This document shows positions 30,344-44,582 of a stretch of DNA of 44,584 nucleotides, one piece after another. A program made the translations under genes and the position numbers. This DNA is from an uncultured Candidatus Saccharibacteria bacterium (GTDB lineage: Bacteria > Patescibacteriota > Minisyncoccia > Phycocordibacterales > Phycocordibacteraceae). The stretch covers positions 1 to 44,584 of the forward strand of contig CAYXYP010000007.1 of the NCBI GenBank assembly GCA_964469405.1. Direction: 5' to 3'. The stretch's first letter is position 1. Each line of letters begins with the position of its first letter. A model generated the notes under the pieces. That model had not been told where the DNA came from. It saw only the letters and a list, made by a program, of their open reading frames with translations, and did not search any database.

Positions 30344-30565
30344 CTATTTTAGATCTTCTATAGTTAGTCCTGCATCTTTCATAATGCTCGAAAGAGTGCC
30401 AGCTTTGAGTTGTTTATGGAGTGGCACGGTAACTTTTTTCGCATTCGGATTAAAGTCAGGAGGGTACAATCTGGCGTGACTCCCCTTTGTTCTTACTTCG
30501 GAATACCCTTTCCGTTCAAGAATTTTCATCAGCGCGATACCAGAAAGTACGGGCAACTTTGGCAT
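30344..30565 (-). CDS. hicA: HicA family toxin
   Basis: KILERKGY...TKGSH...VTVPLH...GTLSSIMK pattern. Confidence 0.88.
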   Translation of the reverse strand: MPKLPVLSGIALMKILERKGYSEVRTKGSHARLYPPDFNPNAKKVTVPLHKQLKAGTLSSIMKDAGLTIEDLK

Positions 30566-30568
30566 GCG

Positions 30569-30781
30569 TCAAACTGTAATCAGATGGAGGCTTACGTCAT
30601 CGTTTTCTACCGAAAAATTTTTTTGATCCTCAAGACATAGAAGCGTTGCTTCTTTGATATTCGCAAGGGCCTCTTCCACCGTCTCGCCCTGAGAGTAGCA
30701 ACCCTCAAGAGCGAAGTTGGTTACCGAGTAACCACCCTCTTTTTCCTTTTGCAGAATTATAGGATACATGCCATGTTGCAT
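30569..30781 (-). CDS. hicB: HicB family antitoxin, short form
   Basis: GGYSV...GCYSQGETVEEALANIKEA; TGcTATACT 6 nt before ATG 30781. Confidence 0.88.
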   Translation of the reverse strand: MQHGMYPIILQKEKEGGYSVTNFALEGCYSQGETVEEALANIKEATLLCLEDQKNFSVENDDVSLHLITV

Positions 30782-30818
30782 GTCGACAGTATAGCACACA
30801 GAGAAATGGGACAAGGTT

Positions 30819-31385
30819 TTACTGCAAGATTTTTTCTATCTTGTTCATAAGTACGCGCTGGCTGAGTACACCAGAATATACCTCTCGAATGACCCCAGCA
30901 CGATCCACAAAAAAGAAGGTCGGTACGCTCTTAATACTGTAATGCTCGCTTGTAATACCTTCTGCATCAAGAAGTGTCTGCACCTGATATCCTCCGCGCC
31001 TCATAAACGAGGAAACGACACTCTTTTCTTCTTGGCTATCGATGGCAACAACTTTTACCAACCGGTTTTGCGAAGTTGTATCTGCAAGATACTGGTCAAG
31101 GATATGTATTTCGTCAGCTGCCTGTGTATTCCAGGTCGACCAAAACACGATGACGAGAGGAGTGTCGGTGAAGTCACTACTCCGCACGCGGTCTCCGATG
31201 AGATTAGGCAAGTCAAAATATGGCAGCCGATTGTTCAAGAGCCCTACGCCGGAGATAGGGGCACCGGTAGCATTCTCCCCCGTAACATCGAGTACGAGTC
31301 CTGACCCGCCCAGATACACAACACCGAAAAGAGTAGCGAGCACCGCCACACCAATGAGCAGAGTTGTGAGATGAGAAGTTTTCAT
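30819..31385 (-). CDS. TlpA/ResA-like membrane-anchored redoxin lacking cysteines
   Basis: FDLPNL-x-G, VIVFWSTWNTQA, SVPTFFFVD and G-x-IRE; no Cys anywhere in the protein. Confidence 0.8.
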   Translation of the reverse strand: MKTSHLTTLLIGVAVLATLFGVVYLGGSGLVLDVTGENATGAPISGVGLLNNRLPYFDLPNLIGDRVRSSDFTDTPLVIVFWSTWNTQAADEIHILDQYLADTTSQNRLVKVVAIDSQEEKSVVSSFMRRGGYQVQTLLDAEGITSEHYSIKSVPTFFFVDRAGVIREVYSGVLSQRVLMNKIEKILQ

Positions 31386-34300
31386 AATGAGAAGATGCGG
31401 TCAATCATACGCTGTATGAACCCCCATATGCCGCTGAATTTTTCAGTCGAGAAAGATACATTCACAAAACCGGCACGTTCAAGCGTAATCTTTTGCGCCA
31501 TACTGCGGTATCCGCTCTTGCGGAGAGAAAGTTCATACATCCCTTGCGGGAGAGCAAGCGCATACTCCCCTTGTGCGTCGCTCGTGATTACGGATGACGA
31601 AGAGAATGGAATGGAATTCCCCGTTCTCTCGTCCAATACTAACACCTTGATACTGGCTCCCGAGAGAGGTTCTGTGTTTCCGTCAGGAATGGATGTCGTA
31701 ACCACACCGTATTTTATGGCGACAAAAGATCCAATGGGTGTTCGAATGAGTACATTGCGCGTCTTGTCTTCTGCACTAATGTATATCGTCGTTGTTCCTG
31801 TACTACCAGAGTCAACCGTCGCTTGCCACAAGCCAGAGACAATATCTTTTTCTAAAGGAATGGTTGTACTGCCAAGTGTTAGAGACGCACTGTTCGTATC
31901 TCCCTCGAGCGATACTTCAAACAAGGTTTTCATTCCTTTATAAAGGGAGATGGCACCCCGTGCATCTGGAACAATACGTACTTCCTGCGCCATCACGTCG
32001 AAACTGCCGATGCGCGGTGGCGAAGCATCGACCGTGACAATGCGTGAGAGCATCGGCGAGACATTGCCGGCGGCGTCTACCGCTCGCACATAGACCGTGT
32101 ACGTCCCATCCTCAATTTTTGTCGGATACTTCAGAGTAAAGGTGGCATTCTCCTGTAAGAAGCCCCCGGTCAGTAATGTCGTGGAGAATGACGTCGGCTT
32201 ATCCTGTGTTACCGCGTATTCGACATATTCGATACCCGAGAGAGAGTCTTGTGCCGTGCCTCGACCGAGCAGAACATCACCTTCCCCAAGTACCGATGCG
32301 CCAAGCGTAAAAGAAGAGAGCACCGGCGGGGTCCTGTCGACCGAGAAATTCACGGTGTCAGTGCCGGTTGCCATACCATCGTTTGCGGCAAGTCGGAGCT
32401 GATAATCATTTGCCTCAGGGAAAGCGGAGGCATCGAAAGCGAAAGAGTTTTTAGCTTGGTCTATCGGTAACAATTTATACGCCTCATGGCCACGCCGATA
32501 TCCTAGAGTGACATTTTTTATCGAATCATTGTCCGCATCAGTAATCCTCCACGATACCGTCGCTTTCCCCATGAGCCCGCGGAATGGTTTTGGCGCAAGG
32601 ATAGAAACCGTTGGCGGATTGTCATACACTACATTCACGATTGAGGCGATACTTGTATTAAGCGCTTCGTCGCGAGCTATAATCTTAAATTGATTCGTTC
32701 CTCGATGTGGTACATCAACCGCACGGAAGATGAAGCTCCCGTCTACTCTCACCTTCTCAGTGAGAGTAGTGCTCTCATTCTGCAAGATAACGACGCTCTG
32801 CGGCTCGGCAGTACCAGAGATACTTATCTGCAACCCTTCTTTTGAGGCGTTTTCATCCTTGTTATTAGACACTAAAGTGTTGTTTGCGGGAGAGTTCACT
32901 ATGGGTGCGAACGGAGCTTTCGTATCGACTATCACCGGATGACTCGTGCGGCCTGAGAGATTACGACTGTCCTTCGCTCGCCACAGTATCCCCTGCGTTC
33001 CCTCTCGAAGATCGGTGAAGGTTACCGAGAAGCGCACTTCAGGAGTGCCGCTCCCGGAGATAAGCGGGACCAATTTCCATTTATTGCCATTATCGAGGCT
33101 GTATTCAACGGTTTTGACCGTTGGTTGAGGCGAAATGGCACTCGGCGTGATAGCGCGCCCGACGATTGCTGCGGTCGATAGATTAGTTATCGTCTTTCGA
33201 CCATCTTCAAAACGGAAGAATGGGAGCGTATTGTGGATGGAAAATGGAGTGGGGTTCGAATACGTTTTTGCGAAACCATCATCTGCCATGACACGCAAGA
33301 AATATTGCCCGTCTTCCACTTCAGTGGAGTCCCACGAGAAGCTCGGAGCTGGTAGTGCATCGCCAATGATGTTCCATTCGTTCTTCGTCGACGTAGCGGC
33401 CACGGTCGCATCAAAATCTTGTGCAGGAATTATTTGGTAGGTAAACAAGAGAGGGTCAGTATTCTCGTCCCCCGCTCGCGCTGTGAGCGCGACAGTTGCG
33501 CTCACAATCGCCTTATCCGTAGGCAAAGAAATCGCAACGGTCGGCGCAATATTGTACTTAATCTGAATCGGCATTGCTTCGCTCATAAGCCCAGTCTGAT
33601 CGCGCGCCCTGACGCTCAAAACATTGAGCCCGTGATTCGTGTCCTTGCTCAGACGAATATTTGAAATAGTAAACACACCATTTTGAGTTGAGCTTGCCAC
33701 ATACGTATCGATACCGTTGACGAGAAGTACTGCCACGGTATCGGAACGCGGGAGAGTGCCAGCCACCGCAACCATGCTCGTCCCGACCACGACATTATTT
33801 TGCGGAGACACGACACTCGGCGCCGGTGGTGGATTAATGCCCACCGCAAACGTACCTCCGCTCACAATAGTCGTCCCAACATTGCCGGCAACGTCAGTAC
33901 CGGAAACGGTAACATTAGCCACGCCATCGTACCCCTTACTGATAATATAGGTTCCTTCATAATGACTGCCCTGCCCCGTCATGACGAGCGATACTGCTTT
34001 CCCGCCAGCTTGCGTAACAGTAATCGTCGGCGCCTCTTGTAGATTTTCCGAGACGTCGACGCTGATGGTGACATCTTTACCCTGTGTTGCTGGCGGATTT
34101 GCTCTTGTGATAAAGGTCGGCGCGGTAAAATCCACCGTAAAGAAATCCGAGACGGTTTCTCCGGAAGTCCCCGCCGCGTCGATAACATTCGCAATAATTC
34201 GATAGAAAACTCCAGGGATGAGGTCGGTAATGCTCCAAGAATAAGAAGCTTCTGCGGGCTGTTTCTCCGCAATAAGCGTTTTAAGGTCCGGAGCGATAGA

Positions 34301-34993
34301 CGCGCCGCCACTGTACCACTCAGCAATCTTGTCCGAGTAATAGAGCGTGACCGGGGTTTTCAGTAAGCCGTAGACATCTCTTTCACTTTGATTCCCTTGG
34401 TCATTGCGGTCGGTCGCTGTATAGCTAATAGTTCCAAGATGCGAAAAAATGGTGCCAACTTTTGGAGAGAAGATGCTGATGCTAGGGCCATACTGAGGAG
34501 TGCCGGCGGATGGAGTCTGTAATTCGTTTTCAGAACTAGCGCCGCCGCCGCTAGGCGGCGGCGGAGGCAGTTCCACCGAGAAAAAGAATTCGTTGATGAA
34601 TTCCGGCGCCTGTCGACACTCGTCTATACTCTGTTGCGACTGATAACAGGGAATATCCGGCGATGTATGCTCCATGATAACGTACCGGCTTTCGGTAAGG
34701 ACCAGGTCGCCGAAATCGTTTCGGTTCACATCCCAGTTCGCTTCGTATCCGAACTTCAAGATCATCGGCGCGTCCGAGGTGATATTGTACAGAATCGCCG
34801 CGGCACCGCCAGATGTCGTAAGTATCTCCTCGCCTTCGAAGTAACCGGACTTATTCAGCGTTATAGCCTCCGCCTCAGTAACGAAAGAAAGAAAGAAAGA
34901 AAGAAAGAAAGCGGTCGCGAAGAACAACAGGAACCGTGAGTTCCGCAAGGGAAACGCGACACGCACACTATCGGTTCTCTTGAGCGGACGCAT
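31382..34993 (-). CDS. Large secreted Ig-like repeat surface protein (start uncertain: 35008 TTG, 34993 ATG or 34966 GTG)
   Basis: Signal peptide, repeated D-x-AGN and D-x-T-x-P beta-sandwich motifs, and a C-terminal carboxypeptidase-regulatory-like segment (DAQGEYAL...G-x-Y-x-L). Confidence 0.8.
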   Translation of the reverse strand: MRPLKRTDSVRVAFPLRNSRFLLFFATAFFLSFFLSFVTEAEAITLNKSGYFEGEEILTTSGGAAAILYNITSDAPMILKFGYEANWDVNRNDFGDLVLTESRYVIMEHTSPDIPCYQSQQSIDECRQAPEFINEFFFSVELPPPPPSGGGASSENELQTPSAGTPQYGPSISIFSPKVGTIFSHLGTISYTATDRNDQGNQSERDVYGLLKTPVTLYYSDKIAEWYSGGASIAPDLKTLIAEKQPAEASYSWSITDLIPGVFYRIIANVIDAAGTSGETVSDFFTVDFTAPTFITRANPPATQGKDVTISVDVSENLQEAPTITVTQAGGKAVSLVMTGQGSHYEGTYIISKGYDGVANVTVSGTDVAGNVGTTIVSGGTFAVGINPPPAPSVVSPQNNVVVGTSMVAVAGTLPRSDTVAVLLVNGIDTYVASSTQNGVFTISNIRLSKDTNHGLNVLSVRARDQTGLMSEAMPIQIKYNIAPTVAISLPTDKAIVSATVALTARAGDENTDPLLFTYQIIPAQDFDATVAATSTKNEWNIIGDALPAPSFSWDSTEVEDGQYFLRVMADDGFAKTYSNPTPFSIHNTLPFFRFEDGRKTITNLSTAAIVGRAITPSAISPQPTVKTVEYSLDNGNKWKLVPLISGSGTPEVRFSVTFTDLREGTQGILWRAKDSRNLSGRTSHPVIVDTKAPFAPIVNSPANNTLVSNNKDENASKEGLQISISGTAEPQSVVILQNESTTLTEKVRVDGSFIFRAVDVPHRGTNQFKIIARDEALNTSIASIVNVVYDNPPTVSILAPKPFRGLMGKATVSWRITDADNDSIKNVTLGYRRGHEAYKLLPIDQAKNSFAFDASAFPEANDYQLRLAANDGMATGTDTVNFSVDRTPPVLSSFTLGASVLGEGDVLLGRGTAQDSLSGIEYVEYAVTQDKPTSFSTTLLTGGFLQENATFTLKYPTKIEDGTYTVYVRAVDAAGNVSPMLSRIVTVDASPPRIGSFDVMAQEVRIVPDARGAISLYKGMKTLFEVSLEGDTNSASLTLGSTTIPLEKDIVSGLWQATVDSGSTGTTTIYISAEDKTRNVLIRTPIGSFVAIKYGVVTTSIPDGNTEPLSGASIKVLVLDERTGNSIPFSSSSVITSDAQGEYALALPQGMYELSLRKSGYRSMAQKITLERAGFVNVSFSTEKFSGIWGFIQRMIDRIFSL
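34883..34910 (-). repeat. Simple sequence repeat (TTTC)7 in the signal-peptide coding region
   Basis: Seven perfect GAAA units on the + strand, encoding FFLSFFLSF. Confidence 0.95.
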
Positions 34994-35366
34994 TATCCGA
35001 GCCGCCAACGTTCAGCGGTGCGACTTCGACGAGCTTCTTGATAATCGGGTCATAGAGGTATGCCTTGCGTGCCGTCGAGTAGAGAAGCACTTTGTCTCCT
35101 GCTTTCGCATTGGCAAAAAACGGCTGGTCTTTCAAACGCCCGGGATCGGACACGGTTGCGACGGTCGGTGTCTCTCCTTCGGGAAGGACAATCAGGGCGC
35201 TGATTTCCGCGACAAGAGACTCAACTTCATTCGCGGTAATGGATTGCTGGTCAGTCTTTAGTTTTTGCGCTTCAGAATAAAAATAATAAGCCGTGCCACC
35301 CACCCCGAGCATTATAACAACGAGAATGCCGATAAGGATTTCTTGAATGTACCTTTTCATCTGCAT
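34968..35366 (-). CDS. Conserved hypothetical membrane-anchored protein
   Basis: TM followed by LPEGETPTVATV, QPFFANAKAGDKVL and AYLYDP (family recalled from CPR genomes); TGgTACACT 7 nt before the ATG. Confidence 0.75.
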   Translation of the reverse strand: MQMKRYIQEILIGILVVIMLGVGGTAYYFYSEAQKLKTDQQSITANEVESLVAEISALIVLPEGETPTVATVSDPGRLKDQPFFANAKAGDKVLLYSTARKAYLYDPIIKKLVEVAPLNVGGSDNASAQENR

Positions 35367-35369
35367 GTG

Positions 35370-35388
35370 TATCAGTGTACCACTGATA
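35370..35388. promoter_or_regulatory. Palindrome overlapping a -10 element
   Basis: tatcagtg-tac-cactgata covers the minus-strand TACACT (35374-35379). Confidence 0.4.
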
Positions 35389-35437
35389 TCTAAAGCTCGC
35401 GCCATACGCTTTCCACAGCCGTGGTATTATTGCCTGA

Positions 35438-36418
35438 ATGCGCCTTTCTCGCCTGACTCTCCCAGTTCTCACTCTTGCCATCGGGCTCATCGTAGGGCTG
35501 TGGTATGGACAGAGCAACGGCTCATCAACGAGTGCCTCGACTTCAATGCAGATGCGGAATAACGAAGGAACATTTACGAACCCTCTGCTTGAGTGCGACG
35601 TTGCCGAAGACACGATTACCGCCTTGAAGATAAACTTCAAGGCGGAACTCGAGAAATTCGTACACACCATGGAAGACAGGACGTCGGTACAGAGGATTGC
35701 GGTGTATTTCCGCGATCTCAATAACGGTCCGACATTCGGTATTCAACAGAATGATCCGTTTATCCCAGCCAGCCTTCTAAAGGTTCCTGTCATGATGGCA
35801 TACTTCAGCGAGACAGAGAGTGATCCAAACATATTGCAGAAGAAACTCCTCTTTACGAAGTCCGCGGCTCCGGACATACGGCAGACCATCCTCCCAGCGC
35901 AACATCTGACCTCTGGGAAAGAGTACTCGATCAATGAATTGATCAAGCGGATGATCGTTTACTCTGACAACGACGCGCTGATCCTCCTCTTCAAGACATT
36001 GCCGATCGAAGACCATCGGCACCTCTACAATCTCCTCGGCGTCGATTCCTCGGTGATTTCCGATCCTACCGCCGCGCTTACCGTAAAGCAGTATGCGGCG
36101 TTCTTCCGGATTCTCTTCAATGCGTCGTTTATTTCGCAAAAGTATTCGGAGGAGGCGCTTACCCTGCTCGCCAGTACCGATTTCGACAGTGGTCTGCGCA
36201 AGGGAGTCCCTGAGAGAATCCCCGTCGCACATAAATTCGGGGAGAGGCAAATCGCTACCAGCGAGCAGCACCTGCATGATTGCGGCATCGTCTATTATCC
36301 CAAGCACCCGTATCTGCTGTGCGTCATGACCCGCGGCGCGAATACATCGACTCTTGAGCGCGCGATCGCCGACATCTCGAAATTCGTGTACGAGAAGATA
36401 GATGAGCAGTATCGTTAG
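35438..36418 (+). CDS. Class A beta-lactamase-related serine hydrolase
   Basis: SxxK (ASLLK), SDN (YSDND), HKFG in place of KTG, and HDCGIVY. Confidence 0.82.
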   Translation: MRLSRLTLPVLTLAIGLIVGLWYGQSNGSSTSASTSMQMRNNEGTFTNPLLECDVAEDTITALKINFKAELEKFVHTMEDRTSVQRIAVYFRDLNNGPTFGIQQNDPFIPASLLKVPVMMAYFSETESDPNILQKKLLFTKSAAPDIRQTILPAQHLTSGKEYSINELIKRMIVYSDNDALILLFKTLPIEDHRHLYNLLGVDSSVISDPTAALTVKQYAAFFRILFNASFISQKYSEEALTLLASTDFDSGLRKGVPERIPVAHKFGERQIATSEQHLHDCGIVYYPKHPYLLCVMTRGANTSTLERAIADISKFVYEKIDEQYR

Positions 36419-36425
36419 ATGCCAA

Positions 36426-39400
36426 TTAATTGCTCGTCGGAGTATTTTCCGGAGGAGAAGCAGGGGCGGATGGTGGCTCGGGTTCATGAGTAGGCTCCGG
36501 CGCAGGTTCAACCGCTGGCTCTTCTAGTGGCGGCGCAGGCGTATCAGAGGTTGGTTCAACTACCGGAGGATCCTCGATGACCGGAGGCGTGGATGTTGCG
36601 CCGGTCTCTTCAGCCGGTGCGGCTTCTGGCGGGGTATCCTTGGCTAGCGGTGTTTCTTCGGAAGTCGGTTCCTTGGATGGAGCAACTTCAGGGAGAACGT
36701 CTGGTTCGGATTGGGCTGTGTTTCCTTGGTTTTCCGGCACCGACTCAGGCGGAATCTCGGGTGGATCTTCGGGTGCAGCTGGCACTACTGATACCGATTC
36801 AGTGGTGCGCGCGCCCTTCACCGCGAGCGCGATCCAGTTGAAGGAGATGTCTTCTCCTGCGGGTTTGTTCAAGAATATTGTGAAGCCGGTCGTCGTGGCA
36901 TTGCCGATCAGGAACCGTATGTCTTTCCCGAGGAGCGCTTGGATTGCTACAGCGCTTTGCTTGCTTGCTGCGATACCGTCCGAACTAGACAGGGTTGCAT
37001 GTACAACTGGCTTTTCAAGGTATTCGCGCTCGAAGGCGATGCGCACTTCGCTGTCCCCTTTCTTCACCACGGCAAAACCGGCCATATCCCGCGTGAAGTA
37101 CGGTGTGCCGAAGAAGATGATGTCGGGATTGACCTTGATCGCCTCGGCAAGCGCATCGAGCGTGTCTACACGCAGGCCGTTTGCGACGATGCGCGGCGCG
37201 AATATCTCGATCCCCGCATTCAGGCGATCAGTAAATATCTCGGAATCGAGCGAAGAATTGCTATCAATCGTCGCCTTGTAGTCGCGGAGGAATTCGAGGA
37301 TATCGAGCTCGCGATCAGCAGTAATGAGCGTCGGAGTAGCGGCGGCTTGCGGCGAGCTAGTCGAGACGGCAGTGAATGTCGCGGTCGTGGTCGTAGCCGA
37401 GAGCACGAACACATCTTCGGGCACGCACTCTTCGATCGTGCTCGCCGTACCGTCCGTACTCGTCACACTGTCCGAGGCACCACACGAAGGAAGCGCGGGC
37501 GCCGCCTCCGTATTTTCGCTTGCTGGCACAACCCCCTCCGCAAGCGCAATCTCCTTCTTTTCATTCATCAAGACCGAGAGCGAGAGGCCGCCGTAGTCCA
37601 CGAGATTGACGAACACCATCACCTGCCCGCATCGCTTCTTCGACAATCCTTCCAGATCATCGGGGCAGTTTGCAAGCTGTTCGACATCCATATTCTCCAG
37701 CGCCGCGCCCATCACGCGCCCGGCTTTCGTCGCACGCATGCCGTACCCAGCGGTGGGCGAGGCCGCGATGCGATCCCCCGCTTTTATAATGCCGTTTTCA
37801 GTCGTTACCTTCACCGGCACGCGGCCGACGAGTGCGACGGGGTAGGTGTTCTCCACGTACGCGCCAAGAACAATACCGGGCTTTGTCGCAACCACACCAA
37901 GTACATTCTTTTGATACGCGCTCGTCGCCATACGCACTTTCTGCGCTTCGGTGCCGTCCACCGCTACAATGTGTCCCGCCTCGAGCGGATCGTCAGAGAC
38001 GTAATTTTCCGCGAGGTCGACGCCGTTGCCTACTCCCAGCGTGTTTTGCGTAGAGCCGAACAAGTAGTGCGATATCAATTCTTGCTGGATTCCGTTGATG
38101 GCGCCGATAAGGAGAAGACGGTCCTCTTCCGCGCTCGCATCGCTCTGCGTAGCGCGGATGAACGCGAGCGATCCGTATGCAACCGTGCCGGATTGCACCG
38201 CAATCGCCTGAATGTCGTCCGCGTCAGTTCCCGACCAAGCGCTGCCGAAGTCGTCGGCGGAGACATCTGCATCAGAGTGAAGGGCGTCGATCACATACGA
38301 TCCAACACCTACGTCAGAAAGAACAGTCACCGCACCTCCGTCCGTACCATCACTCGTACCCACGTAGACACGCCGCGCTTTGCCGAACTGCACCATCGGG
38401 TCAACCGCAACGGCAGTCACATTGTTACTCGCACCTATCAAGTGTTCGGGGTCAACCTCAAAATCCGACGTGGTATCCGGTGTCGTGCCCCAGTTGGATT
38501 GCACGGTAATCACGGTCGCCGTGTTTGAAATAACGCGGCGCGTCTGGCCCGCACCCGTACCCCCCGTGATGGTGACTATCTTGCCGACAAACTCGTTCGG
38601 AATCCACGCCTCACCCGAATCACCAATAGTATTCACGCTCACCGTCGTCGCGGCCGTAACGGCTCTGTTTTTCTGCATGAGATGAGTGCGGCCGTCGAGG
38701 TAGAGCACATTTGCTCCGTCTGTAGTGACACCGCTCGCCGTTGAGGCGAGGTTTGAACTCCAAACGAGGTCGTCGATAGAACCGTCCCAAAAGTTCGCCC
38801 CTGTTGTGCAGTTGGCGGCCGAACATGTTCCACCGACGGTAACTATTTGAGTGGTTGCGGTGTCGAGTGTGGCAGCGGCGGTGAGCCCTGTGTCGCACGC
38901 CACAGCCTGCTTACCATCGATGTACATACAGATATCGGTGTCGGTGTTGGTGAAGACTGCGTGATGCCACACGTTGTCATTGTAGGTTCCCGTTGACGTA
39001 ATAAGGTCATCGTAAGATGTTTGGAGAGTAAATGTTGCATCATCGTCAATAGCGAATATTATATTGCCGGCCGCATTCATTCCTGTATAAATGCATCCGA
39101 CTGTCTGCGCCGGAGTCGAGTTCCAACATCTTTCAACCAAAGTATCCGCTGCTGCTGTCACACTGTGTTTGAACCAAAGAGAAATAGTAAAACTCACGGC
39201 AACGACGTTGTAATCGGCATCGCTGTCGCAGGTGCCGTCAGCGTTTGCATCGGAACACAGGTATGAGTTGTTATTAAGGGCCACCGAATTACCGCGGACG
39301 CCGTCCCCGCCGAAAGTGGGGGCTGTCGCGGCGGCGCTGTCGAGAACATTACGCGTGGAACCCGCGACCCCCATGGCGCTGTGCGATCGTGTGGCCCCAG

Positions 39401-42400
39401 TCGGCTCCTCAAAGAGGAACACACTGCGAGGAGCCGCTGGGCGAAGCGGAGTCGAGGTCGCCGTCGTAAGTACCTTCGTCCACGAGCCGGACGTGCCCGC
39501 GATAAGGTTGCCACCCGAGTCGTGAATCTCGACGAGGCCGAGGTTGGTGCCGAAGAGCACGACATCACCCGCATCGTTGTTGCTGGCTGCGGCGGCTTCT
39601 TTCGCCTTCGAGGCACGTTCAATAACTGAAATCGTTGAAGGCGAGGTGAGAATGGTCGGCACCGCACCGGTAGCGGTGATCGCACCATTGGCCGCCGTCT
39701 CATCGTACGTCTCGTCGGGCGTGCCGTTCGCCTCGGCTATGAGGTCGCGATCCAGGTTGCGCCATGTCTCAAGTTGGGCTTGGGTTTCATTTGCCGCGTA
39801 CATACGGCCGCGCGAGGTCAAATGTACCGTGTTGTAGTCGTCGTTTGTTACATCCGAATAGTTCAACACTTTTTGGTATTCGGGGTGGATAACGCTCACG
39901 CCTGAATCATTCGCAACCGCGACAAGCACCGTGCCGCGCAAGGGGCCTGAACCGGAGTCGAGCGGCAAAGTGGGGGTGTTACCCAGCGCGTCCGCGTTAC
40001 CGAGTTGCATCGCCGCCGAGACGTCGTTGACTACTCCATTGAGGATCCCGAGACTGGTTACCGCATTCGTCGCATATGCAGTAGTTGTGTTTCTGTTCGC
40101 GATGTCCTTGTCTCCCTGTGTTCGATCGACCGCATCGTAGTTGTACATACGGTCTTGCGTAAAGTCGAACGCGTAGAGTCCCGTTGCCGATGCGCCATTG
40201 GCGCCGACATAGATAACGCCATTCACCGCGCCGACACCAGACGGATTGTTGTTGGTATCTGCGCCAAGCGCGAAGGTGCCGCCAGACTGTGTGAATTTCA
40301 TCCAAAGAGTGTTGTCCTTGGCGTCGAAGATATAGAGGCCGTCGACAGTCGTCGCAAGAATCGCTTTACGGGGGAATTCGGAAGAACCGCATCGATCGTC
40401 TGTCGCGATAACGCACGGATCCGACGGTCCGTCGTCCTTCGTCTCCGTGTACCACGAGAGTCCCGAGGCCCTGTCGTTCTTGCGCCAGGCGCCTTTGTCG
40501 CTGTCCTTTGTCGTGTCATAAATTACCATGTCTATGATGTTGGCGAGTGAGCGCTGGATCGTGTAGCCCTTACTTATGACGTCACCGTATACGTTGATAT
40601 CCGAACGACCATTTTCGGCACTCCCCACCGTAAGACCTCCCGTCTCGGACACAGCGAAGAGGTCAACCCCCGCGTCGTCTTCAACGAGCACTGGGAAACC
40701 TGTGTTTTGTGACTGGTCCACAACAATGTGGAGTCCATTGCCCGTGTAGGCATTTGCATCTACGGCATCCATCGTTATCTGGAGCGCGTCACCTGAATAC
40801 GTTCCGCCTGTTGCAGGATTCGGCGAGAGCTGAAGGAGATCGTGAGAACTGCCTGCTGCTGCCGTCTCGGTAATCACGACTGGAGTTGCCGCTGCAGTCT
40901 CAATCGTTGCTCCACTAGTGTATGCGTCTTGCAAGTTACTGCTCCCGCCACCACTTATCGTACAGTCGGTCTGCCCTGTACCGTTCACACAGTTCACTCC
41001 CGCACCAGTGAAGTTGAGGGTTGTAAATTGCGTGAGCGGAGTGTCTTCATTTTCAATGGTTGCATATCCCCCACCACCAGCCGATGATGTCGCCATAAGT
41101 ACCAGGCCGCCGGTAACGTTTGACCACCCAACGACTTGGCCACCAGTACCTATTCCGTAGAGTGTGGAGGTCGCGATAGCTGTTGGAACCGCGCTCCCTG
41201 CCGTTCCGTTCGCTAAGACGGTATTTGCCGCTTGTGCTGAGAGACTTCCGCCACTGAGACACGTGCCGTTCACCGCGTAGCATTGGTTCGCTGCAAGGTT
41301 GATGCCGTTGCCGTAGAAAGTGGTGGTGCCAGTGGTGAAGTTGGCGATGCCTTGGATGGAGAGAAGTGAGCCAGGGGTGGTGGAGCCGATGCCGACATTC
41401 CCGTTATCAAGAATCTGCATCAGTGTCGTAGAGGCATTATTGATGACTGAAAATGCCTGCCCGATGCCTGTGCCGCTGCCCCAAACAGAGAGTTTTGAGT
41501 AGGGCGAGGTGGTGCCGATGCCCACGTTGCCAGCGGTTGTAGAAAGTAACACCGTCCCATCAATGAGTGATGTTCCACCCAGTCCTACATTATCAACCCA
41601 CAAAGAGTAGTTTTTACCCGAGACGACGGTGGTGGTAGCGGCTCCTTCTATGTAGAAAGAAGCGGTGTTGGAGACGGTGGCGGCACCAGCAGTAATAACG
41701 AGTGGTTTTATAGCGAATTGGGAAAAGAGAGGGTGGTTTCCTGACACTCCTTCAGTGGGAGAAAGTTGTGATACTAGTATGCGAGCAAACGAACGGTCTG
41801 AAAGGATAGCTAGAGCCGGGCTTGTATTAGCGAAGGCGACTACTGCAGCAGTGTTAGCAGAATTAAGTGTAAGCGTGCTGTCAGAAAACCACATTTGTCC
41901 AGCAATTCGCAACTGTCCAGTAGCGCCAGTAGCGCCAGCGTCAAGAGAAGAGCTTTCTAGAAACATTCCATTTCCAGTGAGTGTACCCGTTGAGGTAAGA
42001 GATGTACTAAACGTCTTTCCCCCTGCAATCGTCTGCGTCCCCGTCGTTACCAATCCATTCGCCGTTGCTGAAGCAGGCGGGATATTTAATGTATGCACGC
42101 CCCCAGCAGAAGTAATCGTAAAGTTTGTACTGGCTGTCGTGGAAGTAGCAAATGTTTGTATTGCTCCAGTTTGAGCATTGAGAGAAGTGATACCGCCAAG
42201 ACAAGAACCGTTCACCGCATAACATTGGTTCGCTGCGAGATTGATACCGTTGCCGTAGAAGGTAGTGGTACCGGTAGTGAAGTTGGCGATGCCTTGGATG
42301 GAGAGGAGTGAGCCAGGAGTAGTGGTGCCGATGCCGACGTTTCCATCATTCATCACCGTGAAGAGCGTCGTCGAAGCAGAGTTAGCAATTTCAAGTGCTT

Positions 42401-44582
42401 TTGATGTTGCAAGTGTGTCCCCTCCCCAGATGGTGAGTTTGGCATAGGGACTGGAGGTACCGACACCGAGTTTGCCCGTGAGTGGTGTGTTGCCGATGAC
42501 GGTAGAGGTGGTGGTGGCAGGAAGGTTGGCGAAGAGGAAGTTGCCGACGTTCAACATGTTGTTTGTGCCAGTCGATGGGAACTTGATGTTGTATCCCATG
42601 CCGATGTTGCCCCCGCCTGTGGTAAGTGAACCGTTGCCGCCGGTGTTTTCATCGTGACCGAGGAAGATGTTGTCGTAGCCGGTGGTGACGTTGAATCCAG
42701 ATAAGTATCCCACACCAATGTTGTATGAGCCGGTACTGTTGCTGGAGAGGACGCTGTAGCCATTCGCGGTATTGAAGGAGCCAGTCGAGTTGGCGACGAG
42801 AGTGTCGATGCCATAGGCGGTGTTGCTAGAGCCAGTGGTGTTGTTGAGGAGTGATTCGAAACCGGTAGCGGTGTTAGTGGAGCCGGTGGTGTTGTTGGCG
42901 AGGGAGGCACGACCATTGGCGGTATTTTGGAAGCCGGAAGTGTTGGCGGAGAGGGCTTGATAGCCAGTGGCGGTATTGGAGTAACCATCAATGTCAGCGA
43001 AAAGTGCTTGGTAACCAAGGGCGGTGTTGGCATCGCCGGCGGTGTTACTCGCTCCTGCACCGTTACCCACAAAAGTATTGAGCAGTGTCGAAGTCCCCGC
43101 CCGAAGTTCAAATGATACATTTCCGAGAGGGTCACGCAGCGTGATGATGGCGGAGCTTGTGGCAGAGTTGGTGATGTCGAGACGGGAGGAGGGAGTCACT
43201 GTACCAATGCCGATATCGCCACTACCATTTATGATGAATAGGGTTGAGGTGGAAACACCGATTGAGGAAGAAGCAACCACGAAGAGAGGTTTGAGCGTTG
43301 TCGCGTTTGCACTTCCTACGGAGAGATTTGCCCATGGAGTAGAAGTTCCTACTCCGGCAAATGTTCCTGTATTTAGGAATGTATTGACTCCAGAATTCGT
43401 CCAGTAGTTACTTCCTGCGGTACCAGTAAGAGTAGTGCCGTCCCATGAAAGCCCACTGCCTATGACTGCTGTCTTCATCGCTGACGTACCGTTACCTGCC
43501 AGGATTCCACCGAGGGTCGTACTTCCAGTACCACCACCAGCGACACCGAGAAGACCCGCGAGAGTGTTGGTGAAGGTGAGAGTTTGGCCGGAACCGATAA
43601 CGGTGGTGGAGGATGTGAGCCCGTTAAATGCCGTCGAGGAAGTTGCAATGACGACGGCGCCTGTGAGGAGCTGCCCTGTTGGGCCGATCGAGGTAACACC
43701 TCCACCTGCAACCGTTGATGTCGCAACCCACCCAATACCTCCCGTGGAATTATTCCAGCCTAACACCATGCCTCCGGTTGAGGCTCCATAGAGAGTCGAG
43801 GTAGCGAGAGACGTAGGGATGGTTGCTCCTGGAAATGGATTCCCGAGAATACCTTGTGCAAGAGTGCCAAATGCTGTGACGTTAGAACCTGAACTTGTCA
43901 CTGCACCGGTGAGGTTCGCGTTCGTGGTGACGGTGGCAGCATTGCCACTGATGTTCATATTAATAGGAGTGGAGGTTGAGACGGATGCGAAGGTGTTGAC
44001 GCCTGTGGCGTATAAGAGGCCGGAAGCGGCAGCAATATTTGATGAGGTAGCGATACCGCCCCACGTGAGGTTCGGGGTGGAACCACCAGAAGAAATGATT
44101 GGCCAGGTGCCGGTGACCGCGGTGACGCCCGAGACCGCAGACGACGTTGCGATGAAGGCGAGACCACCCGTCACGTTCGACCACCCGAGGACTTGCCCAC
44201 CAACGCCGGTGCCATAGAGAGAGGAGGTTGCTTGGGAGGTTGGGACACCAGAGGCGGGATTGCCGAGGACACCGGCTGCAATTGAAGCAAGAGAGATTGC
44301 ACCACCACCTCCAAGAACGGTATGTGCGGTACACGATATTCCGGTGGAACACGTCTCGGAAGTGGTAGCAACGCCATAGACTCCTGACAATCCATTGGAG
44401 ACAAGGAGATTGCTTGATGATGGTTGTGTTGTTGTAGCGAGGCCGGTATAGGTGACCGTGGAGTTAGAGCCACCGATGAGTGCTCCTAGTGTTCCTGAGA
44501 TAGCGAACGGCCCTGAGAATGAATTCGTCGTGGTCGCCACATTTGCAAAGGTGTTAGCACCACTGAAGTATGGAATGTTCCC
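36426..44582 (-). CDS. Giant surface or adhesin-like protein, 5'-partial (frame open to the window edge)
   Basis: >2700 aa, Thr/Ser/Gly-rich; GNVGIGT repeats, NTAxG repeats, a LamG-like domain, a DLAENY...GRVPVKV domain and a Pro/Glu-rich tail; no in-frame stop up to 44582. Confidence 0.85.
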   Translation of the reverse strand, partial: GNIPYFSGANTFANVATTTNSFSGPFAISGTLGALIGGSNSTVTYTGLATTTQPSSSNLLVSNGLSGVYGVATTSETCSTGISCTAHTVLGGGGAISLASIAAGVLGNPASGVPTSQATSSLYGTGVGGQVLGWSNVTGGLAFIATSSAVSGVTAVTGTWPIISSGGSTPNLTWGGIATSSNIAAASGLLYATGVNTFASVSTSTPINMNISGNAATVTTNANLTGAVTSSGSNVTAFGTLAQGILGNPFPGATIPTSLATSTLYGASTGGMVLGWNNSTGGIGWVATSTVAGGGVTSIGPTGQLLTGAVVIATSSTAFNGLTSSTTVIGSGQTLTFTNTLAGLLGVAGGGTGSTTLGGILAGNGTSAMKTAVIGSGLSWDGTTLTGTAGSNYWTNSGVNTFLNTGTFAGVGTSTPWANLSVGSANATTLKPLFVVASSSIGVSTSTLFIINGSGDIGIGTVTPSSRLDITNSATSSAIITLRDPLGNVSFELRAGTSTLLNTFVGNGAGASNTAGDANTALGYQALFADIDGYSNTATGYQALSANTSGFQNTANGRASLANNTTGSTNTATGFESLLNNTTGSSNTAYGIDTLVANSTGSFNTANGYSVLSSNSTGSYNIGVGYLSGFNVTTGYDNIFLGHDENTGGNGSLTTGGGNIGMGYNIKFPSTGTNNMLNVGNFLFANLPATTTSTVIGNTPLTGKLGVGTSSPYAKLTIWGGDTLATSKALEIANSASTTLFTVMNDGNVGIGTTTPGSLLSIQGIANFTTGTTTFYGNGINLAANQCYAVNGSCLGGITSLNAQTGAIQTFATSTTASTNFTITSAGGVHTLNIPPASATANGLVTTGTQTIAGGKTFSTSLTSTGTLTGNGMFLESSSLDAGATGATGQLRIAGQMWFSDSTLTLNSANTAAVVAFANTSPALAILSDRSFARILVSQLSPTEGVSGNHPLFSQFAIKPLVITAGAATVSNTASFYIEGAATTTVVSGKNYSLWVDNVGLGGTSLIDGTVLLSTTAGNVGIGTTSPYSKLSVWGSGTGIGQAFSVINNASTTLMQILDNGNVGIGSTTPGSLLSIQGIANFTTGTTTFYGNGINLAANQCYAVNGTCLSGGSLSAQAANTVLANGTAGSAVPTAIATSTLYGIGTGGQVVGWSNVTGGLVLMATSSAGGGGYATIENEDTPLTQFTTLNFTGAGVNCVNGTGQTDCTISGGGSSNLQDAYTSGATIETAAATPVVITETAAAGSSHDLLQLSPNPATGGTYSGDALQITMDAVDANAYTGNGLHIVVDQSQNTGFPVLVEDDAGVDLFAVSETGGLTVGSAENGRSDINVYGDVISKGYTIQRSLANIIDMVIYDTTKDSDKGAWRKNDRASGLSWYTETKDDGPSDPCVIATDDRCGSSEFPRKAILATTVDGLYIFDAKDNTLWMKFTQSGGTFALGADTNNNPSGVGAVNGVIYVGANGASATGLYAFDFTQDRMYNYDAVDRTQGDKDIANRNTTTAYATNAVTSLGILNGVVNDVSAAMQLGNADALGNTPTLPLDSGSGPLRGTVLVAVANDSGVSVIHPEYQKVLNYSDVTNDDYNTVHLTSRGRMYAANETQAQLETWRNLDRDLIAEANGTPDETYDETAANGAITATGAVPTILTSPSTISVIERASKAKEAAAASNNDAGDVVLFGTNLGLVEIHDSGGNLIAGTSGSWTKVLTTATSTPLRPAAPRSVFLFEEPTGATRSHSAMGVAGSTRNVLDSAAATAPTFGGDGVRGNSVALNNNSYLCSDANADGTCDSDADYNVVAVSFTISLWFKHSVTAAADTLVERCWNSTPAQTVGCIYTGMNAAGNIIFAIDDDATFTLQTSYDDLITSTGTYNDNVWHHAVFTNTDTDICMYIDGKQAVACDTGLTAAATLDTATTQIVTVGGTCSAANCTTGANFWDGSIDDLVWSSNLASTASGVTTDGANVLYLDGRTHLMQKNRAVTAATTVSVNTIGDSGEAWIPNEFVGKIVTITGGTGAGQTRRVISNTATVITVQSNWGTTPDTTSDFEVDPEHLIGASNNVTAVAVDPMVQFGKARRVYVGTSDGTDGGAVTVLSDVGVGSYVIDALHSDADVSADDFGSAWSGTDADDIQAIAVQSGTVAYGSLAFIRATQSDASAEEDRLLLIGAINGIQQELISHYLFGSTQNTLGVGNGVDLAENYVSDDPLEAGHIVAVDGTEAQKVRMATSAYQKNVLGVVATKPGIVLGAYVENTYPVALVGRVPVKVTTENGIIKAGDRIAASPTAGYGMRATKAGRVMGAALENMDVEQLANCPDDLEGLSKKRCGQVMVFVNLVDYGGLSLSVLMNEKKEIALAEGVVPASENTEAAPALPSCGASDSVTSTDGTASTIEECVPEDVFVLSATTTTATFTAVSTSSPQAAATPTLITADRELDILEFLRDYKATIDSNSSLDSEIFTDRLNAGIEIFAPRIVANGLRVDTLDALAEAIKVNPDIIFFGTPYFTRDMAGFAVVKKGDSEVRIAFEREYLEKPVVHATLSSSDGIAASKQSAVAIQALLGKDIRFLIGNATTTGFTIFLNKPAGEDISFNWIALAVKGARTTESVSVVPAAPEDPPEIPPESVPENQGNTAQSEPDVLPEVAPSKEPTSEETPLAKDTPPEAAPAEETGATSTPPVIEDPPVVEPTSDTPAPPLEEPAVEPAPEPTHEPEPPSAPASPPENTPTSN
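41257..41402 (-). repeat. Intragenic repeat copy A
   Basis: 49-aa unit GNVGIG...CYAVNGxCL, repeated 942 nt away at 42199-42344. Confidence 0.9.
42199..42344 (-). repeat. Intragenic repeat copy B
   Basis: 47/49 aa identical to copy A; DNA differs mostly at third codon positions. Confidence 0.9.

Follow-up and report, generated by a model that had tools for sequence, protein, structure and literature searches.

Short sequence repeats near the start of a gene can act as ON/OFF switches, and the initial annotation of the locus described here proposed such a phase-variation switch in the signal peptide of a surface protein. The question is whether this tract alternates between ON and OFF states in nature or varies in length while the gene stays in frame. 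We analyzed the window, that is, the whole stretch of 44,584 nucleotides in which the tract lies, and compared the tract across related loci, assemblies, and public sequencing runs. The organism is a groundwater Patescibacteria; the homologues come from groundwater metagenomes, and their named sources fall in the Minisyncoccia or the Patescibacteria group. The window also contains ordinary chromosomal genes, including those for several aminoacyl-tRNA synthetases, DnaB, and MurG.

A tetranucleotide tract in a predicted signal peptide

The gene and the parts of it concerned are as follows.

31382–34993, minus strand: gene for an Ig-like-rich secreted or surface protein of 1203 aa, with Big_13, Big_6, and a CarboxypepD_reg-like C-terminal domain
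34865–34993, minus strand: coding region of the 43-aa signal peptide, with an AxA↓(I/V)(T/S)LDK junction conserved in 17 family members
34883–34911, minus strand: (TTTC)7 tetranucleotide microsatellite, codons 28–37, encoding A-FFLSFFLSF; natural alleles of 7 and 4 units

On the plus strand, positions 34883–34910 consist of seven perfect GAAA units followed by an extra G at 34911, which read as (TTTC)7 on the minus strand. TRF returned 7.2 copies with 100% matches at this site, in agreement with the seven perfect units first annotated. Within the reading frame, the tract begins at the third base of codon 28 and takes in all of codons 29–37. A scan of all 44,584 bases for perfect microsatellites found the next-longest ones to be only 12 nt, so that the tract is indeed the sole long perfect microsatellite in the window. 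Similarly, a 20-nt TTTC pattern, with at most two mismatches allowed, matched one site in the window, the tract itself, and was found in 0 of 100 dinucleotide-preserving shuffles. The microsatellite scan and the shuffles together indicate that the tract is real, unique within the window, and far beyond chance. As in contingency loci, it is a perfect non-triplet simple-sequence repeat inside a reading frame and downstream of the start codon. We also considered whether the plus strand, (GAAA)n, might itself have a function, and rejected this; no plus-strand gene lies within ~500 nt downstream.

Based on its n-, h-, and c-regions, the 43-aa N-terminus is predicted to be a Sec-type cleavable signal peptide. 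The n-region, MRPLKRTDSVRVAFPLRNSR, has five basic residues; the h-region, FLLFFATAFFLSFFLSFV, has 18 aa with seven units and a mean Kyte–Doolittle hydropathy of 2.39; and the c-region, TEAEA, precedes cleavage before ITLNK. The FFLSFFLSF encoded by the tract forms the hydrophobic core. Additionally, the predicted cleavage site, A-E-A↓I, aligns with the AxA↓(I/V)(T/S)LDK junction of 17 homologues, each of which has a preceding signal peptide.

The in-frame candidate start codons are ATG 34993, GTG 34966, TTG 34948, and TTG 34927, all upstream of the tract, and the first in-frame start downstream of it is Met82. The MxP(F/L)K(R/K)TD N-terminus is found again in P0005, the weak GGCGG upstream of ATG 34993 has the same spacing as the GGAGG in orthologous locus L010, and the public gene calls of the ENA-derived assemblies also chose this ATG. 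Together with the junction shared by the 17 homologues, these comparisons settle the start, and the concern that the true start might lie downstream of the tract does not apply. The tract therefore lies in the signal peptide and 3′ of every candidate start, and the gene is currently in frame, with 1203 aa from the ATG, both as the initial annotation had described.

To follow the coding effect of unit number, we rebuilt the gene in silico with 1–12 units. Only 1, 4, 7, or 10 units yield the full-length protein; the other lengths run into one of two stops.

34875–34877, minus strand: TGA stop reached with 2, 5, 8, or 11 units; the peptide ends in …FFRY
34861–34863, minus strand: TAA stop reached with 3, 6, 9, or 12 units; the peptide ends in …SLLRRRL

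With the out-of-frame lengths, the stop falls 3–7 codons past the tract and the protein is truncated at codons 32–46. A change of one unit thus produces a frameshift and a truncated product in silico, as in contingency loci, and the effect foreseen for the gain or loss of one or two units is reproduced. In contrast, in-frame steps add or remove one FFLS block only, because every frame of the tract reads the same F, L, and S residues. The h-region has 10, 14, 18, and 22 residues for 1, 4, 7, and 10 units, respectively, with nearly constant mean hydropathy. The expectation that a three-unit change alters the hydrophobic core alone is consequently borne out, and the natural difference described below, four versus seven units, is of this kind. 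Programmed ribosomal frameshifting was considered at the tract and rejected, as both alternative frames stop within seven codons and hold no alternative ORF.

Unit number in natural populations and orthologues

The allele survey comprised five independent assemblies and ~25 public runs from six studies. The runs (35 DNA runs were found) were read as Logan k=31 contigs, which drop rare variants. In the assembly alignment, seven units are present in the window, L002, L003, and L004, and four units are present in L001/L005 (L001 being from Hainich well H41). Over 280 nt around the tract, L001 is otherwise identical to the others except for the SNP at 34935. Among the runs, spanning contigs show seven units in X8 and X11, as do tract-spanning k-mers in X1–X5 and X9. 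Four units were found in spanning contigs of X7, X12, and X15, as well as in X27 (290x) and X29 (390x), each of which has one unbranched contig through the tract.

Both alleles were found in X6, X26, and X30, in allele-specific unitigs exactly as predicted for a mixture of four and seven units. The depths of the 4-unit allele, the 7-unit allele, and the flank are 44.8, 26.5–29.6, and 58–64 in X6; 141.2, 68.8, and 176–202 in X26; and 401.5, 207.5, and 457–560 in X30. In these mixed samples, the 4-unit and 7-unit depths together approximate the flank depth. The 4:7 depth ratio is ~2:1 in all three, which come from two studies; a stable ratio of strains is one possible cause, and a bias of k-mer counting against the longer repeat is another. 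Compared across strains and samples, the unit number is therefore not invariant: tract length varies both between and within natural populations, as in contingency loci, and the sole lengths resolved, four and seven units, differ by 12 nt in frame.

Out-of-frame alleles (5, 6, 8, or 9 units) were resolved in none of the five assemblies and ~25 runs at the contig or consensus level, at which OFF alleles below ~5–10% could be missed. The branch point expected for five or six units is absent from every run's contigs. The OFF states of the proposed switch thus appear in no assembly or contig set, although k=31 contigs would miss rare ones. Since an alternation of ON and OFF alleles was sought at the consensus level and not found, we do not class the tract as a proven contingency locus, although in principle it works like one. 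In a collection of 15 billion proteins, four distinct sequences of this species are present, all of them full length; three fall in the 90%-identity cluster of the window protein, and P0002, a 4-unit allele, falls in a second cluster. A scan of metagenome contigs with a pattern of both flanks and a variable gap matched only the known H41 contig, and the sampled query words were absent from all three RNA runs.

The k-mers of two runs bear on longer alleles. In X9, where the 7-unit k-mer has a depth of 33, C(GAAA)7G+x reaches 13.5 and x(GAAA)7GC reaches 15, or ~10 once a foreign contig is subtracted. These depths are compatible with, and hint at, an allele of at least eight units in about a quarter of the population. 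Overall, k-mers compatible with at least eight units make up ~10–25% of local depth in X9 and, less clearly, in X5, where the signal is weaker and its right-hand part comes mostly from a 441-nt contig of another genome. All of these k-mers include only 1–2 nt of locus-specific flank, and unrelated GAAA repeats, which are abundant in these metagenomes, confound the inference. In X10, X12, X19, and other runs, pure (GAAA)n 31-mers have depths that range from several hundred to ~180,000, far above those of any genome present; they may be microsatellites of another organism or a library artefact, and they break k=31 contigs at the locus.

Two nearby features bear on the relation between the alleles and the strains that carry them.

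34935: C/T SNP (R20Q) at a distance of 25 nt from the tract; each of its two states occurs with both the 4- and the 7-unit allele
34415–34611, minus strand: hypervariable Pro/Gly/Ser linker patch between the first two β-sandwich domains, where the strain divergence of the gene body begins

The combinations are seven units with C in the window, seven with T in X8 and X6, four with T in L001, X15, and X6, and four with C in X7. We had considered these four combinations as proof of recurrent slippage and dropped the argument, as the SNPs at 34935 and 35201 are likewise combined with each other in all four ways. The allele distribution can therefore be accounted for by recombination, with no need for recurrent slippage. 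Moreover, in X6 the 4:7 ratio of 63:37 matches that of two haplotypes ~300 nt downstream, with depths of 30.2 and 18.9, which indicates two strains living side by side, each with its own tract length, rather than a single strain that switches.

The divergence between strains is mosaic, as seen when window positions 31100–34611 are compared with 34612–40400. L001, the H41 strain, differs from the window at 0–3 sites per 200 nt over ~5.8 kb, upstream of the surface-protein gene and into its codon 128, whereas the remainder of the gene is 5–24% different, with 88% protein identity. Such a pattern points to recombination, or to diversifying selection, limited to the portion of the protein that is exposed. 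Between L002 or L003 and the window, the gene is identical except for 18 changes in the patch 34415–34611 (SGGGASSENELQTP versus DGGGSSTDEVPNTP); the patch is a disordered linker in the structural model, with pLDDT <50. Separately, the coding sequence of the n-region contains a small hairpin, GGAACTCACGGTTCC, at 34930–34944 on the minus strand, between the TTG alternative start and the tract. The polymorphic site 34935 lies inside it, and the change would convert a G-U pair into an A-U pair.

The repeat is absent from all examined orthologues (42–70% identity), whose signal peptides, roughly 20–55 residues as called, have the same AxA cleavage junction. The signal peptide of L007, for example, reads GGT TTT GTA TCG CTA TTT CCT TCG, and those of L010, L011, and L012 likewise lack the repeat. 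The orthologue signal-peptide sequences are T/C-rich and as such are raw material for the growth of a TTTC run. With four units, the h-region is 14 aa long, as is typical of the family, whereas the 18-aa h-region of the 7-unit allele is four residues longer than that of every other member. Because the orthologues lack the repeat and the 4-unit core is family-typical, the tract is a recent feature of one species. A scan of species-representative genomes found only one relative, 39% identical. P0007 and P0008, which at first seemed to lack a signal peptide, were considered as OFF alleles and rejected: the start of one was called wrongly, a contig end truncates the other, and in both the reading frame is open through a normal signal peptide.

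The surface protein and its conserved neighborhood

Pfam and NCBIfam searches with the 1203-aa protein found Big_13, Big_6, a Ca-tandemer-like repeat, an OmpL47-type barrel, and the CarboxypepD_reg-like C-terminal domain. An AlphaFold2 model of mature residues 1–257 (pLDDT 84) shows two β-sandwich domains and a disordered Pro/Gly/Ser linker. Foldseek matched the modeled domains only to generic Ig-like structures, among them the Deinococcus S-layer protein HPI and the adhesin SiiE, and a sequence search of the PDB with the surface protein gave no useful match.

The genes on either side overlap the surface-protein gene.

34968–35405, minus strand: upstream gene for a membrane-anchored protein of 145 aa, whose end overlaps the ATG of the surface gene by 26 nt; a partner in all orthologous loci
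30819–31385, minus strand: downstream gene for a TlpA/ResA-like, membrane-anchored protein with a thioredoxin fold; its start codon and the stop codon of the surface-protein gene overlap (ATGA)

Gene order was compared among orthologous loci at 56–70% protein identity, and overlaps were scored where the junction is visible. The conserved order comprises a giant protein, a class-A β-lactamase-like protein, a membrane-anchored protein of 130–145 aa that overlaps the start of the Ig-like protein, the Ig-like protein itself, the thioredoxin-fold protein that overlaps its stop, and a Cache-domain protein. The redoxin gene that the initial annotation called coupled does overlap the surface-gene stop (ATGA), and the arrangement is conserved; translational coupling, and hence polarity of an upstream frameshift on the thioredoxin-fold gene, is plausible. 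The thioredoxin-fold protein has zero cysteines, with WSTWNTQ in place of WCxxC, and the orthologues in L007, L010, L011, and L012 retain this loss. Because the loss is conserved, the protein is probably not a thiol oxidoreductase.

Several further features of the neighborhood were observed. The giant upstream ORF of 2704 aa (36426–44540, minus strand) is almost without Pfam matches, and its G+C content is 53–58%, compared with 42–51% elsewhere in the window. It contains a 51-nt tandem repeat at 42811–42945 and adjoins the surface-protein gene in related loci too. The class-A β-lactamase-like gene (35438–36418, plus strand), well under the NCBIfam cut-off, belongs to the conserved neighborhood, and its orientation in the window and L011 is inverted relative to L007 and L010. 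Finally, a variable slot lies 3′ of the thioredoxin-fold gene at ~30560–30790 on the minus strand; in this species it is occupied by a HicB-like antitoxin gene, and in the 70% orthologue locus (L007 9246–9905) by a gene for an IS200/Y1-type transposase.

Switch or tolerated length polymorphism

We consider it probable that the tract is a coding microsatellite born of slippage that is seen only in in-frame states, that is, a tolerated length polymorphism. A young, species-specific tract would have grown in the pyrimidine-rich Phe/Leu/Ser codons of the Sec signal-peptide core, and strand slippage or unequal pairing within it would alter the unit number. Steps of three units (12 nt) would add or remove one FFLS block and give an h-region of 14 aa (4 units) or 18 aa (7 units), and both alleles would circulate among closely related, recombining strains. 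Both might persist because signal peptides tolerate both h-region lengths, while other unit numbers would be kept rare or removed because they would abolish a protein conserved across the family, in a gene neighborhood that is conserved too. In contrast to this reading, a passage between four and seven units by the usual single-unit slips would go through OFF intermediates. Furthermore, a pure repeat just after the start, with prompt stops in both other frames, is the classic contingency layout, and the allele of at least eight units suggested by k-mers in X9, and less clearly in X5, might be out of frame.

The rival reading is a true contingency locus, in which slipped-strand mispairing would cause frequent, reversible ON/OFF changes and the samples examined would be under selection for ON. 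This account, in which the coupled gene may be lost by polarity and an episymbiont varies its attachment or phage-receptor structure, is in our judgment unlikely but deserves to be taken seriously. It is favored by a perfect non-triplet repeat near the start whose other frames stop within 3–7 codons, by the variation of tract length in nature, by a diversified gene body beside a near-identical upstream region, as expected of a selected surface protein, by the occurrence of both alleles on all combinations of the SNP 25 nt away, and by the possible k-mers of at least eight units in X9 and X5. However, the five assemblies and ~25 runs contain no resolved OFF allele at the contig level, four and seven units account for the whole flank depth in mixed samples, and the alleles follow strain haplotypes in X6. 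The recombination evident from the SNPs at 34935 and 35201 suffices for the allele distribution. Moreover, seven units are few compared with well-studied tetranucleotide switches; Haemophilus tetranucleotide tracts usually have well over 10 units, and the switching rate falls with length. No further tract of this kind is present in the window, which covers 44.6 kb of the genome. Collectively, the anatomy of the switch first proposed stands, namely the tract, its position, and its frameshift effect, whereas the ON/OFF alternation is possible but not supported, given only in-frame alleles, their tracking of strains in X6, and the absence of the tract from orthologues.

The two core lengths could also differ in function and be kept by selection, as a rheostat rather than a switch, with core length tuning the export route, cleavage efficiency, or N-terminal membrane anchoring. 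We regard this as improbable. Both alleles occur at substantial frequency in several wells and studies and coexist at ~2:1 in three samples, the 7-unit core exceeds all others in the family by four residues, and the mean hydrophobicity stays at 2.4–2.5 while the length nears a membrane span. However, coexisting strains explain the coexistence of the alleles well enough, and signal peptides tolerate wide variation in h-region length. As for an artefact of assembly or sequencing behind the tract or its length difference, contigs do break at the tract in many k=31 assemblies, and the same metagenomes abound in k-mers from unrelated GAAA repeats. Nevertheless, ENA assemblies, the identical L004 contig, and Logan contigs of six studies provide independent recoveries of both alleles, with allele-specific unitig depths of 26–400x, and these recoveries effectively refute an artefact.

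The tolerated polymorphism that we favor and the switch can also be viewed against known systems. The closest analogue, and the nearest precedent for a contingency locus, is the phase-variable CTCTT coding repeat in the leader-peptide region of Neisseria opa (PMC3745409, PMC3960869). In both, a pyrimidine-rich non-triplet repeat lies within the part of a surface-protein gene that codes for the signal peptide, hydrophobic leader residues result whichever frame is read, and only one unit-number class modulo 3 gives the full-length protein (PMC3745409, PMC3960869). By analogy, the present locus could possibly work as a similar ON/OFF switch. The likeness is one of repeat mechanism only. The unit is 4 nt here and 5 nt in opa, a single gene stands against an opa family of about 11, and a 1203-aa Ig-like chain stands against an eight-stranded β-barrel. 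With its Ig-like and CarboxypepD_reg-like domains and modeled β-sandwiches, the protein falls outside the Opa family of eight-stranded outer-membrane β-barrels. Additionally, opa switches at ~1e-3 per generation and its OFF alleles are common, whereas only in-frame alleles are seen here.

Tetranucleotide contingency loci are also known in Haemophilus influenzae and Neisseria meningitidis, such as lic1A (CAAT) and hgp (CCAA). As in these, the repeat lies near the 5′ end of a gene with a surface function, and one unit shifts the frame. In contrast, those species have many loci, usually with longer tracts and documented ON and OFF states, whereas here one short tract was found in 44 kb of one species, with OFF alleles unseen in contigs. 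In human CNDP1, leucine-repeat length variants lie in the hydrophobic core of the signal peptide. Such variants resemble the sole kind of variation resolved at the TTTC tract, in that whole-codon differences in the h-region stay in frame and the protein is exported, export being predicted for the present protein. However, CNDP1-type variants are triplet repeats in which no frameshift is possible, whereas the unit here has 4 nt and every third step is in frame. Enrichment of simple-sequence repeats at the N-terminus is a recognized signature, and indels are tolerated at protein termini (PMC3315296).

Our literature searches turned up no account of phase variation in either Patescibacteria or the Candidate Phyla Radiation. 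That the tract represents the first simple-sequence contingency locus in this radiation is doubtful; it would entail opa-like switching, in an ultra-small groundwater episymbiont, of the conserved 1203-aa protein and, by polarity, of its coupled partner, with the alleles of at least eight units in X9 and X5 as OFF or next-ON states. If switching were true, slipped-strand phase variation would extend from host-associated pathogens to uncultivated groundwater episymbionts, and the conserved gene set of giant protein, small membrane protein, Ig-like protein, and thioredoxin-fold protein would be a surface structure under fluctuating host or phage selection. On present evidence, the more modest value of the locus is as a clean example from nature of a frameshift-prone signal-peptide repeat seen only in in-frame states, and the difference between four and seven units is a convenient strain marker for this population.
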